42,557 nt of DNA, taken from the sequence record DRR378314_2264. One strand, 5' to 3'. Made by a program: the position numbers and the translations under genes. Under the pieces are notes generated by a model. That model searched no databases. It saw only the letters and a program-made list of their open reading frames with translations, and was not told where the DNA came from. Below, in pieces: positions 30,136 through 39,580 of this stretch. The stretch's first letter is position 1. Each line of letters starts with the position of its first letter.

Positions 30136-31485
30136 ATGATCGAAGTCAAAAAAGGCCTGGATCTCCCCATCACGGGAGCGCCCGAGCAGCGTATTGAAGA
30201 TGCGCGGCCTGTGCGCCACGTGGCAATCCTGGGCACCGACTACGTTGGCATGAAGCCGACGATGGAAGTTCAGGAAGGGGATAAGGTCAAACTGGGCCAA
30301 TTACTCTTCACCGATAAGAAAATTGATGGTGTACGCTTTACAGCGCCCGCCAGCGGTGAAGTCGTGGCTATTAACCGTGGCGAAAAGAGACGTCTGCTGT
30401 CTGTCGTTATTAAAGTCGATGAAAATGAAGAAGCGATGACATTTGCTTCTCATGACCGTGACGCTTTAGGGCAGCTTGAACGTCAATCTGTTGTTGATCA
30501 ACTGGTTGAGTCAGGGCTTTGGACTGCTTTGCGCACCCGGCCTTTCTCTCGCACGCCAGCTATCGACAGCACACCTACCGATATTTTTGTTACTGCTGTG
30601 GATACTCATCCACTCAGCGCTGACCCTGCGGTAGTGATCAACGAAAACTCCCAGGCATTTGAAGACGGCCTCAAGGTGCTAACCCGCCTGACCGAGGGCA
30701 ACGTTTTTCTATGTACGGGTGCTAATGCTTCCATTCCTGGTGGTAATGTCAGCGGCGTAAAGACTGAGAGCTTTGCTGGCCCGCATCCGGCAGGTTTGGT
30801 AGGAACGCATATTCATTATCTTTCACCGGTAGCCCTGCACAAAAAAGTGTGGCACATCGGTTATCAGGATGTGATTGCGTTCGGCAAGCTGTTTGTAGAA
30901 GGCAAGCTTGATACAAGCCGTATTATTGCTGTCGGCGGCCCGCGTGCTGAAAATCCTCGTTTATTGCGCACCCGTATTGGTGCCAGTACGGAGGAGTTGT
31001 TAGCAGGTGAGGTCATCAAACCCGATGACACCCGTGTTATTTCAGGTTCTGTGTTCTCTGGTGCTTCCGCTGAAGGGAGTCTGACTTACTTGGGACGTTT
31101 CCATAACCAAGTAAGCTTGCTCGAGGAAGGTAACAAGCGCACCTTCTTGGGATGGATGTCTATGGGGGCTAATCGGCACTCAATCATGGGCATTTACATT
31201 TCTAAGATTAAAGGCCTGAGCAATTATGCACCAACCACGTCAACCAATGGCTCTGAACGTGCCATGGTACCGATCGGTGCATATGAAGCCATTATGCCTC
31301 TGGATGTTATGCCAACACAGCTGCTACGCACGCTGATCGTGGGTGACATTGAAGTTGCCATGCAACTTGGGTGTCTTGAGTTAGACGAAGAGGATTTGGC
31401 ACTGTGTACCTATGTTTGCCCAGGCAAATACGAGTACGGCCCTATCCTGCGTGACAATCTCACCATGATCGAGAAAGAGGCCTGA
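30136..31485 (+). CDS. nqrA: Na+-translocating NADH:quinone reductase subunit A
   Basis: [39 protein letters not shown]. Confidence 0.97.
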
Positions 31486-32711
31486 TGATGGGTATTCGAC
31501 AAACACTCGATAATCTCGAGCCGCACTTCCATAAAGGTGGTAAGTACGAAAAGTTCTACCCGCTCTACGAAGCGGTAGATACTATTTTCTACTCGCCCCC
31601 CAGCGTTGCTAAAACTACCGCCCACGTGCGTGACGGTATCGATCTAAAGCGCATCATGATCACCGTTTGGCTGTGTACTTTCCCGGCGATGTTCTTCGGT
31701 ATGTGGAACGCAGGCTGGCAAGCCAACACCGCCATTGATGCAGGCTATGCATCAATGAACGGCTGGCGTGAAGCGATCATGATGACCCTGGCGGGTGGAC
31801 ATGACCCCAGCAGCTTATGGGCTAACTTTGTCCTCGGTGCGACCTACTTCCTGCCTATCTATCTTGTCACGTTTGTGGTGGGTGGTTTTTGGGAAGTACT
31901 GTTCGCAATCAAACGTGGTCATGAGGTTAACGAAGGTTTCTTCGTAACGTCGGTACTGTTTGCGCTGATTCTGCCGGCGACTATTCCGCTTTGGCAGGTT
32001 GCTCTGGGTATCACCTTTGGTGTGGTAATCGGTAAAGAGATCTTCGGCGGCACGGGTAAAAACTTCTTGAACCCCGCGCTTACTGGCCGTGCGTTCCTTT
32101 ACTTCGCCTATCCAGCGCAAATCTCAGGGGATGCCGTATGGGTCGCCGCAGATGGCTATACTGGTGCAACTGCGCTCTCCATGGCGTTCCAAGACGGTAT
32201 GACAGCGCTGACTGATACCATGAGCTGGTGGGATGCCTTCCTTGGCTTTATCCCTGGTTCAGTGGGTGAGGTCTCGACACTGGCGATCTTCATTGGTGCG
32301 GCAGTACTGCTGTGGACGCGTATTGCATCATGGCGAATCATGCTGGGTGTTCTTCTGGGCATGGTCGTCACCAGTACGCTGTTTAATCTGATTGGTTCTG
32401 ACAGCAACCCCATGTTTGCAATGCCCTGGTACTGGCATTTGGTGATTGGTGGCTTCGCTTTCGGCATGGTGTTTATGGCAACGGACCCGGTGTCTGCTTC
32501 CATGACTAACCAGGGGCGCTTGGTGTTTGGTGCGTTGATCGGTGTGATGACCGTTTTGATCCGTGTGGTAAACCCCGCCTTTCCTGAGGGCATCATGCTG
32601 GCCATTCTGTTCGCTAACTTATTTGCGCCGCTGATTGACCACATGTTCGTCCAGGCCAATATTAAACGTCGTCTCAAGCGGACTGGCGTAGCGGCCGAGG
32701 AGAATGCCTAA
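31485..32711 (+). CDS. nqrB: Na+-NQR subunit B
   Basis: [27 protein letters not shown] site [12 protein letters not shown]. Confidence 0.97.
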
Positions 32712-33532
32712 TGGCACAAGGTAACAACTCCATCAAAAAGATCCTAACCGTAGCGTTTTCGCTGTGTATCGTGTGCTCGGTAATCGTTTCGACGGCTGCC
32801 GTTGCGCTGCGACCTATGCAGCAGCTCAACCAGGAATTGGATCGTAAAACCAACATTCTTAACGTGGCGGGTCTCTATGAGCCGGGCATGGATGTTGAGG
32901 AAGCGTTCAGCACGCAAATTACCGCACGTGTAGTTGATTTGGATACCGGTGAGTACACCGATCAATTCGACCCGGCTACCTTCGATGGCTTTGAAGCCTC
33001 GAGTGATCCTGCAACGGGTCGTACGCTTTCCGGTGATCGCGACATTGCAGGCCTGTCTCGTGTTGAGAACTTCGCGACTGTTTATCTTGTCGGTGATGCT
33101 GAAAACCCCGAGCAGATTGTTCTGCCCATTCGTGGGCAAGGACTCTGGGGCCGCATGATGGGCTTCCTCGCGGTTGAAGGCGACGGTAACACTATCGTCA
33201 GTATCACTTACTACGACCATAGCGAAACGCCGGGTCTCGGTGCTGAGGTAAATAATCCGCGTTGGCAAGCTCAATGGGAAGGTAAGAAGATTTACGACGA
33301 AGAGGGCGACCTCTCACCGGAAATCCACCTGACCAAAGGCGGCGCAAGCAACGAGTACGAAGTTGATGCGCTTTCTGGTGCAACGCTAACCAGTAACGGC
33401 GTGACCAACATGCTGCAGTTCTGGTTCAGCGAAGAGGCTTTCGCTCCGTATTTGGCTAACTTCCGTAGTGGTACTGAACCAGAAGATGCCGAAGACACCG
33501 ATACCGACTTCGACGACGTTGAGGGGGCTTGA
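32711..33532 (+). CDS. nqrC: Na+-NQR subunit C
   Basis: GQGLWG, ETPGLG, FMN site [11 protein letters not shown]. Confidence 0.97.
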
Positions 33533-33534
33533 TC

Positions 33535-34203
33535 ATGGCGGATGTAAATGCAAAAAGCGTTTTAACGGCGCCGATTTTTAAGAACAACCCCATTGCACTA
33601 CAAATTTTGGGGATCTGTTCTGCTCTAGCGGTTACGACCAGCATGAGCGTATCGCTGGTAATGGCGCTAGCGGTTACTTTTGTAACGGCCTTTTCGAACT
33701 TGTTCGTATCGTTGATCCGGAACCATATTCCGTCTTCGATCCGTATCATTGTTCAAATGACCATTATTGCGTCGCTGGTTATCGTGGTTGACCAGATCCT
33801 CAAAGCTTACGCTTACGAAATGTCTAAGCAGCTGTCGGTCTTTGTGGGCCTGATCATCACCAACTGTATCGTAATGGGCCGTGCGGAAGGTTTTGCGATG
33901 TCCAATACGCCGAGCATGTCGTTCCTTGACGGTATCGGTAACGGCTTGGGCTACGGCTTAATCCTAATGATCGTTGGCTTCTTCCGTGAGTTGCTGGGTG
34001 CTGGCAGTATCTTTGGCTTTACCGTTCTACCAACAGTGCAAAATGGTGGTTGGTATGTGCCCAATGGTCTGCTGCTCCTGCCGCCCTCTGCCTTCTTTAT
34101 TATCGGTTTGCTGATCTGGGTTTTACGTTCAGTCAATCCTGAGCAGGTAGAAGAGAACGAGTTCAAAATGAAGCACAACACCAAGCCGAAGGAGGCCGTG
34201 TAA
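33535..34203 (+). CDS. nqrD: Na+-NQR subunit D
   Basis: [33 protein letters not shown] at 33535. Confidence 0.97.
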
Positions 34204-34204
34204 C

Positions 34205-34822
34205 ATGGAACACTATCTAAGCCTTTTCGTTGCTTCGGTTTTTGTTGAAAACTTGGCGCTGGCCTTCTTCTTAGGGATGTGTACATTCCTGGCGGTATCT
34301 AAGAAGGTTTCCGCTGCATTTGGCCTCGGGATTGCCGTTATTGTCGTACTGACAATCTCGGTTCCGGTCAACAATCTAGTGTTCAACCTGCTGCTGGCTG
34401 AAGGCGCTTTGTCTTGGACTGGCATAAGCGGTGCTGAAAACATCGATCTTTCATTCCTGGGTCTTCTGAGCTACATCGGCGTTATTGCCGCACTGGTTCA
34501 GATTCTGGAAATGTTCCTCGATAAATATGTTCCTGCGCTATACAACGCGCTGGGCGTATTCCTGCCGCTGATTACCGTTAACTGCGCCATCCTAGGTGGC
34601 GTACTGTTCATGGTTGAGCGTAACTACAACTTCGGTGAATCCGTAATCTACGGTTTCGGTTCTGGTGTTGGCTGGGCGCTTGCGATTACAGCGTTGGCTG
34701 GTATCCGTGAAAAGCTGAAGTATAGCGACGTGCCTGGCGGTCTTCAGGGTCTTGGCATCACGTTTATTACCGTTGGCTTAATGTCGTTGGGCTTTATGTC
34801 CTTCTCAGGCATTCAGCTTTAA
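34205..34822 (+). CDS. nqrE: Na+-NQR subunit E
   Basis: [35 protein letters not shown]. Confidence 0.97.
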
Positions 34823-34830
34823 TCGGAGCC

Positions 34831-34870
34831 GGTTTTCTCGGCAGCTCAGGCTGCCGAGGTACAGAAAACC
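34831..34870. other. Intra-operon stem-loop between nqrE and nqrF
   Basis: CTCGGCAGC-TCAG-GCTGCCGAG (34837-34858), extendable by GGTTTT/AAAACC. Confidence 0.6.
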
Positions 34871-34890
34871 TTCAGCAATAGGAAACCGAC

Positions 34891-36123
34891 ATGGTTGATA
34901 CATCTGTCATCTTGCTCGGTGTTGTCATGTTCACGGTCATCGTTATTAGCTTAACGGCGATCATTCTGGCAGCGCGCAGCAAGCTAGTGAGTAGCGGGGA
35001 CGTGACGATTGAAGTCAACGGCGACCCCGAGCACACCCTGCAGACTCAGGCTGGTGGTAAGCTTCTTAACACCTTAGCTGCAAACGGAATCTTTCTTTCC
35101 TCTGCCTGTGGTGGCGGCGGTTCTTGCGCTCAGTGTAAGTGCCGAGTAGAAGAGGGCGGCGGCTCCATTTTGCCGACGGAAGAATCTCACTTCACTATGC
35201 GTGAAAAGAAAGAAGGCTGGCGTCTGTCTTGTCAGGTTCCTGTGAAGCAGGACATGAAAGTAGAAGTGCCTGAAGAAGTCTTCGGTGTTAAGAAGTGGGA
35301 GTGTGAAGTTACCGCGAACCCCAACGTTGCGACCTTCATTAAAGAGTTGAACCTGAAGCTGCCCGAAGGTGAGGAAGTTGCCTTCCGTGCCGGTGGTTAT
35401 GTACAGCTGGTAGCGCCGCCTTACGATATTAAGTTCTCCGATTTTGACATCGAAGAAGAGTATCGTGGCGATTGGGAAAAATTTGATATGTTCAAAGTTT
35501 CCCATAAGAATAACGAGGAAGTTATCCGCGCTTACTCTATGGCTAACTACCCGGATGAAAAAGGCCTCCTCAAGTTCAATATTCGTATCGCGACGCCGCC
35601 TCCGGGTACAAGCCACCCGCCGGGCCTTATGTCGACCTATGTCTTCAATTTGAAGCCGGGCGACAAAGTGACCGTTATGGGGCCGTTTGGCGAGTTCTTT
35701 GCCAAAGACACTGATGCGGAAATGATCTTTGTTGGTGGTGGTGCGGGTATGGCGCCAATGCGTAGCCACATTTTCGATCAGCTCAAACGCTTGAAGTCAG
35801 ATCGTAAAATTACTTTCTGGTACGGTGCGCGCTCCTGGCGTGAGACCTTCTACAACGAAGAGTATGATCAGCTAGCCGAAGAGTTCCCGAACTTTGAGTG
35901 GCACTTGGCGCTTTCTGATCCGCAGCCAGAAGATAATTGGGAAGGGCCGACAGGCTTCATCCACAACGTATTGTACGAAAACTATCTGAAGGACCACCCA
36001 GCTCCGGAAGATTGTGAGTACTACATGTGTGGGCCGCCCATGATGAACGCGTCTGTTATCAAGCTATTGCTCGATATGGGCGTGGAGCCGGAAAACATCC
36101 TGCTGGATGACTTCGGCGGTTAA
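34891..36123 (+). CDS. nqrF: Na+-NQR subunit F
   Basis: 2Fe-2S motif [10 protein letters not shown]...[29 protein letters not shown]. Confidence 0.98.
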
Positions 36124-36141
36124 CAACGTGATTGTGTAAGT

Positions 36142-36186
36142 TGCCTTCGGGCATGAGCGGGGCTGGCCTTTTGGTCAGCCCCGTTT
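36142..36186 (+). terminator. Tandem hairpins after nqrF (probable terminator)
   Basis: TGCC-TTCG-GGCA (cUUCGg tetraloop), then GAGCGGGGCTGGCC-TTTT-GGTCAGCCCCGTTT. Confidence 0.65.
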
Positions 36187-36326
36187 GTATGTGAATGGTT
36201 GAAAAACGATGAGTTGCCTGATCATTTTGAAGTGGCTGAGGTACAATAGGCATTAAAATTCTACGGCACTTAACGACATGACCGTTGTCGGCAGGTGAGC
36301 AGTTAACGCAATGCTGGGAGGTGAAC

Positions 36327-36581
36327 ATGACAATCTGGCTACTGGTATTTGGTTTTATGGCGCTGGTAATGACGGCAATGGCCGTTGGTGTCTTAATGGG
36401 CCGCAAGCCTATTGCGGGTTCCTGCGGCGGATTAAATCAGTTAGGCCTCAAAGAAGGCTGTGACATCTGCGGCGGCAAGGATGAGGTTTGCGAAGAAGAA
36501 AACCGCAAGCGTGGAAGCGTACGGCGGCGTAGCGATGAAAGCCGTGGAGCTGACCTAGGTTATGACGCAACGCGTCGTTAA
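36327..36581 (+). CDS. nqrM: Na+-NQR maturation factor NqrM (DUF539)
   Basis: Single TM, then GRKPIAGSCGG...CDIC...C. ATG 36327 after GGAGG. Confidence 0.9.
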   Translation: MTIWLLVFGFMALVMTAMAVGVLMGRKPIAGSCGGLNQLGLKEGCDICGGKDEVCEEENRKRGSVRRRSDESRGADLGYDATRR

Positions 36582-38073: not shown

Positions 38074-38114
38074 AATGTTTTAAGTAGGGGGGCTATGTCC
38101 CCCATATTCACGCC

Positions 38115-39056
38115 TCACAAACCATCCAGCAGTTGCTGCGCGCGTGGCTGCCAGTCACCGTCTAAGGTGGCAGCCTGAGTGAGTGCTTCCCGCGCACCCT
38201 CCCTATTTTCCTTCTGAAGCCTGAGTATGGCTACATTGAGCCATGCAGCGCCCATGGCAGGGTCAAGCTGTGTGGCTGATTCGAAGGCTTCTAGCGCTGC
38301 TTGAGGTTGTTGATCGGCGTATAGCGCATTGCCGAGTGCAAATTGACCCAGCGGATTAGCAGGGAAGCGTTCTACAAAGGCTTGCCAACTGGAAAGTGTT
38401 GCTACAGGCCCATGCTGCTCCTCGTAAGCGCTAATGGCTTCCAGTGCATTGCGGGCGGTAACGCCTTCGGGCAGGCTTCCTGGTTCGCTAACCACAAACC
38501 CCCAGCGCTCACTGCGTGCCCAGGTAGCATCAAAGCGGCTAAACGACATCGTATGTCGTTCGATTTCGCCACTACGTAAAATCAGCGTTTCATTAGGTAA
38601 ATCAAAACCAATGGCCACCGCGTAGTGCCACATCGGGAAAGCTGGCAAGGCGAGGTTTTGCATCACCACTACAGGGTCACCTGCTTCCAAATGGCCGAGC
38701 AATGCATCCATGGTGCCACGAACGGGGATCGCCAACTGCTTATAACGGCGCACAGTGGCTAGCATTTCAGGCTGAACGCTACCTTCTCGCCCAGGCAGAA
38801 ATACCTGTGGGATTAACTGCTCAAGCCCTGCATCTACCCCCTGGTGATTGAGCGCCATTGCCAGTGTTGCTGGGCCACACTGATACGCCGTCTGGGCGTA
38901 AAACGGTACTTCGGTCAGCTCAGTTTGCGGTGCTAGGCTAGCTTTAGTGCTTTCTAACAGCACCGGGCTTCTGGCGCAGCCGCTAAGCAGAGTGGGCAGC
39001 AGCAGGGCAAGCAGTAAAACGCCCGCAAAGCGGGCGTTTAAAAGCTGTTTCATCAT
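38115..39056 (-). CDS. PA2778-family C39-like cysteine peptidase; lipoprotein with C-terminal TPRs
   Basis: Lipobox LSGC; VPFYAQTAYQCGPATLAM (Gln...Cys); WHYAVAIGFD (His...Asp); FALGNALY and AWLNVA TPR-like repeats. Start is ATG 39056 or 39053. Confidence 0.85.
   Translation of the reverse strand: MMKQLLNARFAGVLLLALLLPTLLSGCARSPVLLESTKASLAPQTELTEVPFYAQTAYQCGPATLAMALNHQGVDAGLEQLIPQVFLPGREGSVQPEMLATVRRYKQLAIPVRGTMDALLGHLEAGDPVVVMQNLALPAFPMWHYAVAIGFDLPNETLILRSGEIERHTMSFSRFDATWARSERWGFVVSEPGSLPEGVTARNALEAISAYEEQHGPVATLSSWQAFVERFPANPLGQFALGNALYADQQPQAALEAFESATQLDPAMGAAWLNVAILRLQKENREGAREALTQAATLDGDWQPRAQQLLDGL
39015..39041 (-). terminator. Terminator/attenuator-like hairpin inside the 5' end of the peptidase gene
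   Basis: Minus strand reads TTAAACGCCCGC-TTT-GCGGGCGTTTTACT, about 26 nt after the PA2779-like stop codon. Confidence 0.6.
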
Positions 39057-39066
39057 GGCAGTCAAA

Positions 39067-39480
39067 TCAGCGAGTGAACGGATAAACATCGGTCAGGCCG
39101 AGAATGTCAGTCACCAGTAGGATAACGAATACCGCAAACAGGGCGCCAATCACGCCGGCGCCGGCGGGCAGCTGTTCGAGTTGTTCGGCCATTTGCTGAG
39201 CTTCTGCATCGCTTAGTGCGGCAACGCGGGCTTCAACGTCATCTAGATCGACACCCTGCTTGAGCAGCTCTTCTTGCACATCTGCACGGGCGAGAATTTC
39301 ATTGATACGCTCGCGGTCAGCACCTGCGCGGTCGCCTGCTAAAACAGATTGGGTAGAGACTAAGTCTGTAGAGGTAGCGTCCATACTCTGCGGGGCTGTG
39401 GGCGCAGCGGCAACAGGTAGGCTGGTAATGACTAACGCAGCGATCAGTAAGCTTGAGAGATAAGCACGCACTTTTTTCAT
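39067..39480 (-). CDS. PA2779-family exported protein with hydrophobic C-terminus (putative peptidase substrate/precursor)
   Basis: Signal peptide MKKVRAYLSSLLIAALVITSLPVAA; GVDLDDVEARVAALSDAEA...LPAGAG; VIGALFAVFVILLVTDILGLTDVYPF. ATG 39480 with AAGGA upstream. Confidence 0.85.
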   Translation of the reverse strand: MKKVRAYLSSLLIAALVITSLPVAAAPTAPQSMDATSTDLVSTQSVLAGDRAGADRERINEILARADVQEELLKQGVDLDDVEARVAALSDAEAQQMAEQLEQLPAGAGVIGALFAVFVILLVTDILGLTDVYPFTR

Positions 39481-39580
39481 TGTCTTCATCCTTAGACGTA
39501 TCGGGGAGCAAGGTAATTTGTAACCTGAATCAATAGTATAGAAATAAACCGTACTGGATTTAAGGCGAAAACGAAAAGTG

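Follow-up and report, generated by a model that had tools for sequence, protein, structure and literature searches.

Sequence record DRR378314_2264 is a stretch of 42,557 nucleotides (the window), and its minus strand carries, flanked by holA and by the convergent gene sthA for a transhydrogenase, a pair of adjacent genes for a small protein with a Sec signal (the precursor) and a lipoprotein of the cysteine peptidase type (the peptidase). The precursor open reading frame (ORF; 39480–39067), with the C-terminal part ALSDAEAQQMAEQLEQLPAGA-GVIGALFAVFVILLVTDILGLTDVYPFTR, is followed by the peptidase ORF (39056–38115), whose ATG lies 10 bp past the precursor stop; an alternative in-frame ATG at 39089 would lengthen the peptidase to 324 aa and overlap the precursor. 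Both genes are direct members of catalogued families. The precursor matches NF033919 (PA2779 family) with 140.5 bits (cut-off 40; positions 2–123 of the 123 in the profile) and also PF20332, the PA2779 family being DUF6627. The peptidase matches NF033920 (PA2778 family) with 311.1 bits (cut-off 150) and contains PF13529 (C39_2) and tetratricopeptide repeats (TPRs) behind the lipobox LSGC27. The nearest named protein belongs to Vreelandella alkaliphila (99% identity). A preliminary description of this DNA, made from its letters, had listed the Sec signal, pro-region, PAGA motif and hydrophobic tail of the precursor as well as the neighbouring TPR lipoprotein, and these features stand as described:

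39067–39480, minus strand: PA2779-family (DUF6627) precursor, 137 aa; minus-strand RNA in a close relative.
39403–39480, minus strand: Sec signal peptide, about residues 1–26; basic n-region, apolar helix and AAA c-region, cleavage site placed by eye.
39352–39373, minus strand: flexible linker in which the copy number of a 15-bp unit varies; low predicted local distance difference test score (pLDDT), indels in relatives.
39169–39318, minus strand: folded helical pro-domain, residues 55–104; conserved R56, R65, G76, R85 and LSDxE.
39157–39168, minus strand: PAGA motif, residues 105–108; putative cut after A108 (alternative after G107).
39070–39156, minus strand: predicted 29-aa mature core; apolar helix 109–124 and conserved TD-I/L-L-G-x-T-x-V/I-F/Y-P-F tail.
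38115–39056, minus strand: PA2778-family lipoprotein cysteine peptidase, 313 aa; C39-like domain and three TPR-type helical pairs.
38976–38978, minus strand: lipobox Cys27, next residue Ala, without the Asp retention signal.
38877–38894, minus strand: Gln55 and catalytic Cys60, aligned with the Q/C motif of ComA and LahT.
38571–38627, minus strand: catalytic His144 to Ser162, the latter at the position of the C39 Asp.

Pairing and Distribution of the Two Families

In a profile search of 401 Pseudomonadota genomes, both families exceed their cut-offs in the same 49 genomes (12%) with 51 copies each, and all 51 copies are adjacent, precursor then peptidase, on the same strand. A precursor is also present in 79 of 80 further named loci, which were found via the peptidase, and the exception lies at a contig end. 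Kin are not independent, and these pairing figures are counts, not probabilities. Co-occurrence had been suggested earlier as a check of the pair, and by these counts the two families do not occur independently.

Clustering of the neighbours within 4 kb in the 80 loci gave no conserved third gene, only taxon-specific housekeeping genes, and no recurring transporter, tailoring, immunity or receptor gene. The peptidase is a stand-alone protein, and its proposed independence of a transporter holds for these neighbourhoods. The pair had also been described as inserted between housekeeping genes. Its position is indeed such, but a recent horizontal insertion was rejected: the G+C of the pair is unremarkable (0.52–0.55, window ~0.51) and the holA cluster flanks it in 27 of the 80 loci, all Halomonadaceae, so that the pair is an inherited locus. 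Longer fused forms of the peptidase were found neither among 1252 candidates, in a weak search, nor in the loci read, and the literature searched gave no paper on a C39 fusion with Omp85 or POTRA. One peptidase gene (L009:522–1523(−)) has an internal TAG, and that genome holds a second, intact pair; a lone peptidase match in the viral contig collection lies at a contig edge (L177).

Three sub-threshold lipoprotein paralogues without TPRs (L062:4277–4939(−), L063 and L064) lack a precursor both in the 9 kb retrieved and by genome search. Cys60 is replaced by Ser and His144 by Arg in the two that can be aligned, and the third shows the same substitutions by eye. These pseudo-enzyme paralogues come from three genomes of one genus, and the one in L062 adjoins a D-alanyl-D-alanine endopeptidase-like gene.

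Among the Desulfobacterota, DUF6627 occurs in 64 of 301 sampled genomes (21%), and 57 of 251 Desulfobacterales genomes are positive, with up to five copies. A distant subfamily in this phylum has the same pro-domain and a different, beta-strand-like tail ending H-R/K-I-V-V-K behind an even more apolar helix; its dipeptides (n=20) are GG 13, GQ 3, AG 3 and GA 1. Here the C39 lipoprotein and the TPR part of the peptidase are two proteins, the latter with a Cys-ending signal of its own (L159–L176, L179–L201), and tandem precursors with different tails share one peptidase (L160, L161). A peptidase is nearby in 18 of 23 further loci of this type; of the five others, one lies at the end of its contig, and the remaining four come from two genomes which each have a peptidase elsewhere (2/2 checked). 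In L199, Ser replaces the catalytic Cys and the precursor beside it is intact. Three betaproteobacterial-type loci have short, purely apolar tails. Judged from the sequences, a conserved pro-domain carries tails that are exchangeable between lineages, which is a modular arrangement of leader and core.

The Precursor Motif and Pro-domain

The alignment holds 273 distinct precursors, five fragmentary or extended representatives (P0124, P0128, P0152, P0245 and P0255) being excluded. Pro-Ala-Gly stands exactly 12 residues past the conserved Glu93 in 248 of them. Gly occupies position 107 in 267 and Ala in 6; the counts at position 108 are G 155, A 84, S 11, Q 11, E 9, R 2 and K 1, giving the dipeptides GG 150, GA 83, GS 11, GQ 11, GE 9, AG 5, GR 2, AA 1 and GK 1. 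GG, GA or GS is therefore found in 244/273, with a small residue after the Gly in 92%, and the conservation of PAG(G/A), named beforehand as a check, is confirmed. Residue 109 and the spacing up to the helix vary, and indels begin just behind the motif. Fixed Gly, a small residue and then variability resemble a P2–P1 pattern, so that a cut after residue 108, as originally placed, is likelier than one after 107, and A108/G109 would be the likelier scissile bond. Cleavage of the precursor at the PAG site is itself probable.

The preliminary description assumed a leader of the LSxxEL type, and the canonical register is not found here. The distance from the LSDxE motif to the Gly exceeds that of canonical double-glycine leaders by eight residues. 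With a cut after 108, Pro is at −4, Asp/Glu at −7 and apolar residues at −5, −8 and −12, the share of L/I/V/M/F being 0.00 at −4, 0.00 at −7 and 0.99 at −12; a cut after 107 gives 0.72, 0.99 and 0.14 at these positions, but places Ala at −2. The LahT protease requires leader positions −4, −7 and −12 and rejects the change of Leu-7 to Asp (PMC6363468).

In the predicted model the pro-domain (pLDDT ~90) is a folded helical unit, unlike a short leader. It shows internal couplings (I59–L89, R65–A94 and N60–A87; 337 rows, effective 254), and no pro-domain-to-core pair is among the 30 strongest. The whole precursor monomer reaches a predicted template modelling score (pTM) of 0.45. The idea that the pro-domain chaperones the tail finds no support in these couplings or in the model. 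No solved structural relative of the precursor was found by sequence (best E 0.057) or by Foldseek (E<=0.001), and its protein-atlas match stayed below 0.9. As for the Sec signal, the model has a helix at residues 2–20 and the family consensus has AxA. In close relatives, the linker with its 15-bp repeat has a 15-bp insertion in X1/X4 and loose ends in X21/X22.

The Peptidase and Its Active Site

The peptidase model (pLDDT 94.6) matches 3erv (Z 18.3), LahT (6mpz, Z 17.4), PeiR (Z 17.2), PCAT1 (Z 16.8) and ComA (Z 16.5). The double-glycine protease folds superpose with a root-mean-square deviation of 2.2 over 132–135 aligned residues (LahT 135), and profile matches include ComA (E 0.0009) and LahT (E 0.002). 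Since the Z scores of 3erv, LahT and PeiR tie, the fold does not name the substrate.

A C39-type Gln/Cys/His/Asp set had been assigned to this protein. Its first three members hold, as Gln55, Cys60 and His144 are invariant (47/47), but the Asp does not. His+18 is the structurally matching strand position, the segment aligning without gaps to the H..D strand pair of a papain-fold protease; it is Ser in 111, Thr in 13, Gly in 1 and Ala in 1 of 126 sequences and Asp in none; this third-residue assignment was made by sequence. The third catalytic residue of LahT is Asp117, at His101+16 (PMC6363468), and the His+16 residue of the family is Leu in 46/47. A catalytic Asp is therefore not supported. 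Asp152 (His+8) was considered and rejected, being part of a G-Y/F-D hairpin.

The lipobox is present in 127 of 130 peptidase relatives, with Asp at +2 in 0/127. By the sorting rule of E. coli, a lipoprotein without Asp at +2 goes to the outer membrane, so the peptidase is probably located there.

The Core Tail and Its Topology

Within the main family, conservation is higher in the tail than in the pro-domain (3.39 vs 2.34 bits), the core being almost invariant from Zetaproteobacteria to Desulfobacterales, and it has no glycine zipper beyond G112. The reading of the pair as a ribosomally made and post-translationally modified peptide (RiPP) system or membrane-active weapon, favoured in the preliminary description, agrees poorly with this conservation and with neighbourhoods free of recurring immunity or modifying genes.

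Cys stands in place of Gly128 in 25 of the 270 sequences scored, each with a second Cys about ten residues on; the other 245 have neither and none has a single one. The pro-domain has a Cys in 2/273. Furthermore, in the representative P0245 the tail is followed by an OmpA_C domain (E 5.6e-18), and such DUF6627-OmpA_C fusions (L206:2948–3790(−), L207–L227; Desulfobacterales-like sediment contigs) occur in 21 metagenome loci and in one genome. The OmpA motif is readable in 19 of the 21 loci and nearly all keep PAG[G/S/A]. None of the fusions is beside a peptidase, and the fusion-bearing genome has an ordinary pair elsewhere; the precursor of the window is without an OmpA_C domain. Disulfides and OmpA_C domains are periplasmic features, and the all-or-none Cys pair together with the fusions argues that the end of the tail is periplasmic. 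The couplings F118–T136, L122–T136 and D125–F135 topped the list and suggest a fold-back of the tail on the helix, which is a lead only because independent contrasts do not support it.

Expression and Regulation

Two elements flank the precursor ORF:

39535–39541, minus strand: CTATACT, a −10 element of the sigma-S/sigma-70 type, 61 nt upstream of the precursor ATG.
39010–39039, minus strand: terminator-like hairpin and U-tract (stem 39039–39017) in the signal-peptide codons of the peptidase; −20.6 kcal/mol, z −3.56.

YTATACT stands upstream in 25 of 29 Halomonadaceae loci (0.6 expected), and we take this consensus to be of the RpoS type; a sigma-70 consensus scan gave no full promoter. In four loci of Stutzerimonas/Phytopseudomonas (L107, L112, L134 and L145), GAAC-N16/17-TCT was seen by eye in its place, an element resembling a promoter of the extracytoplasmic function (ECF) sigma type. 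The Pseudomonas aeruginosa orthologues PA14_28140 (PA2779) and PA14_28150 (PA2778) rise in stationary phase, by 2.9 and 3.2 if the values are read as log2 (PMC3272035). PA14_28140 belongs to the primary RpoS regulon by chromatin immunoprecipitation and RNA and is a direct target; deletion of rpoS gave −3.15 and −3.44 (adjusted p 0.007 and 0.018), and AlgU had no effect in the data given there (PMC4362757). The P. stutzeri gene is among the tabled candidate strong promoters (PMC10155442).

RNA data came from two stranded runs of one study on a relative 95–99% alike, with 12% of the reads used. Depth over the precursor was 27–64 and 66–159 in the two runs and over the peptidase 3–6 and 1–10, so that precursor RNA exceeds peptidase RNA ~9-fold and ~29-fold, and molecule ends pile at 39048–39061. 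A hairpin with U-tract lies within 110 nt of the stop in 19/36 Halomonas-like, 27/106 other and 1/19 divergent loci; the control stretch has one in 0/36, 1/106 and 0/19. At 38075–38520 of the window, readthrough from sthA past a short intergenic hairpin yields antisense RNA over the 3' end of the peptidase gene, deeper than the sense RNA in one run. Elsewhere, the window contains an ordinary Na+-NQR operon (30136–36581; nqrA–F by inspection) with nqrM (PF04400), and leuS-lptE-holA lies on the other side.

Relation to Known Systems

PA2779/PA2778 of P. aeruginosa have the same order and sizes as the pair, with no difference found. These families had been called uncharacterised, and no functional test of PA2779/PA2778 or DUF6627 was found in the literature searched, which leaves subscription journals mostly uncovered. 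PA2779 is divergent from bswR (PMC3985676), and loss of a start codon is on record for clone CHA (PMC3697988). No proteomic evidence was found: PA2779/PA2778 are absent from one supplement of PMC7694347, and a search of the N-terminomics literature gave nothing relevant.

[quoted passage not shown] In contrast to them, the peptidase is a TPR lipoprotein with no ABC transporter and Ser/Thr for Asp, and its partner has a Sec signal, a folded pro-domain and apolar residues at −5/−8/−12 instead of −4/−7/−12. The pair may function as a double-glycine processing system would if relocated to the periplasm and no longer tied to the transporter. C39 peptidases normally act in the cytoplasm, as the preliminary description put it, but with an exception: FapD of the Pseudomonas Fap amyloid system is a Sec-exported C39-like protease, active in the periplasm, which needs its catalytic Cys and for which non-canonical sites are suspected (PMC5557850). 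FapD is a precedent for C39 proteases acting in the periplasm. It differs in its setting, an operon of six genes for amyloid secretion that includes the FapF barrel, and its description is not that of a TPR lipoprotein, whereas the pair consists of two genes only and a small apolar substrate. In the text of a review on RiPP leader proteases, a whole-word search for periplasm, lipoprotein or Sec gave no match (PMC10885120).

The Gly motif, apolar helix and basic end of the precursor also recall the GlyGly-CTERM/rhombosortase system, in which cleavage takes place at a Gly motif by published chemistry (PMC6219818). However, the enzyme there is an intramembrane serine protease of the rhomboid type with many cargoes, unlike the papain-fold lipoprotein here, which has one conserved N-terminal domain and a conserved tail as its partner, with cargo behind the helix and not in front. 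All 51 over-cut-off precursor matches start at profile position 2–8 and cover the pro-domain, so the tail is not found on other cargo. Tethers of the Pal/MotB type have an anchor segment preceding the peptidoglycan-binding OmpA_C domain, as do the Desulfobacterales fusions; the anchor would, in contrast, be a peptide unmasked by a protease, neither a lipid nor an uncleaved signal anchor. The pair departs in some tested features from PCAT systems, RiPP clusters, GlyGly-CTERM and type VI secretion system (T6SS) pairs; for the last, the lipobox in 127/130 relatives and the lack of a recurring T6SS-linked neighbour within 4 kb (80 loci) are the points of difference.

Proposed Mechanism and Alternatives

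The following course of events is proposed. An RpoS-type promoter would drive the precursor in stationary phase, and the hairpin past its stop would end most transcripts, with little peptidase made. Sec would export both proteins, the peptidase being lipidated, probably at the periplasmic face of the outer membrane, where it would recognise the folded pro-domain, probably via its TPRs. The cut would fall at PAG[G/A/S], most likely after residue 108, by a Cys–His pair with Ser for Asp. The 29-residue core would then stay in the envelope of the producing cell, held by its freed apolar helix and with a periplasmic C-terminus, and serve there as an anchor without lipid or as a structural peptide. 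The Cys pair, the OmpA_C fusions and the conservation of the tail over the pro-domain are the grounds for reading the core as functional, retained and C-terminally periplasmic. That periplasmic cleavage near PAGA/G unmasks such a self-envelope anchor peptide and not a bacteriocin, with the core as the retained product, has in our judgement about an even chance. A more specific version, in which DUF6627 proteins are zymogens of a lipid-free anchor whose helix, freed by an outer-membrane protease, inserts or oligomerises in the outer membrane and can take cargo, is offered tentatively and is rather improbable.

Several observations weigh against the proposed retained anchor. The core helix scores as transmembrane (best 19-mer sum below zero in 230/249, on a biological hydrophobicity scale) and the tail is net basic in 181/244, these hydrophobicity and charge counts omitting 24 of the 273 rows, while the motif and Cys counts cover all 273 by alignment; an apolar helix with a basic tail is the signature of an ordinary inner-membrane anchor (N-out/C-in). 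The route by which so apolar a helix would reach a C-out topology, by full translocation and then insertion or as a re-entrant hairpin, is unexplained. The Cys pair falls at 9 places on the best, but weak, tree, and only 2 independent contrasts, both concordant, lie on supported branches, a number too small for testing; the OmpA fusions look like one clade. The fold is as near PeiR and 3erv as the double-glycine proteases, 23 of 273 motifs are non-canonical (GQ/GE/GR/GK), and the E. coli +2 rule may not hold in this host. A surplus of partner RNA and the missing partner next to dead enzymes would fit an inhibitor as well.

One alternative is shedding or sorting, in which the precursor sits in the inner membrane as a type I protein (N-out, C-in) and the peptidase, by a cut at the same site, releases its soluble pro-domain or transfers it to lipid or wall; the tail would be a discarded anchor, as in GlyGly-CTERM but with a soluble-domain sortase of its own. 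The resemblance of Gly motif, apolar helix and basic end to the tripartite GlyGly-CTERM, with its published chemistry (PMC6219818), speaks for it, as do the more apolar Desulfobacterota helix followed by H-R/K-I-V-V-K and a folded pro-domain common to all subfamilies. A discarded tail should hardly outdo the pro-domain in conservation, however, and this one is not found on other cargo; the Cys pair and OmpA_C fusions place the C-terminus outside the cytoplasm, and the peptidase is without +2 Asp. We regard this explanation as unlikely.

Alternatively, the small protein could inhibit a harmful protease stoichiometrically or confer immunity to it, with no turnover. PA2778 has been named a T6SS toxin candidate (10.1101/733030): it is listed as a putative toxin, and a small gene next to it is depleted of insertions in a library with active H1-T6SS. 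The RNA excess and the dead paralogues noted above point the same way. Set against this are the lipoprotein signal of the peptidase in 127/130, and we know of no T6SS effector delivered via such a signal, as well as the slow change of both partners, which are not diversifying, the motif kept by orphan precursors with a cargo domain, and tandem precursors with different tails sharing one peptidase; the chance of this reading is small. A bacteriocin- or pheromone-like RiPP, whose core is released from the cell as a membrane-active or signalling peptide, would suit the modular leader and core (several core types, precursors in tandem or dispersed), the disulfide loop of some cores (Cys pair, 25/270) and the patchy distribution (49/401 genomes). 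Yet immunity, transporter, receptor and tailoring genes do not recur, the core is almost invariant from Zetaproteobacteria to Desulfobacterales and has no further glycine zipper, the viral contigs gave a single match, and a peptidoglycan-binding fusion is sensible only if the product stays in the producer. We consider it the least probable of these explanations.

Implications

Of the genomes sampled, 12% of the Pseudomonadota, P. aeruginosa among them, have the pair, and 21% of the Desulfobacterota have DUF6627. If the anchor reading is true, it would describe a protease-gated fixing of small helical proteins in the envelope, carried out by a protease of the double-glycine type that has a Cys-His-Ser site and acts outside the cytoplasm with no transporter, and it would reassign PA2778, which is currently listed as a candidate T6SS toxin. 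If the anchor were in the outer membrane, this would be an undescribed route for alpha-helical anchors, parallel to Lol-dependent lipidation, with the anchor produced in large amounts under RpoS.

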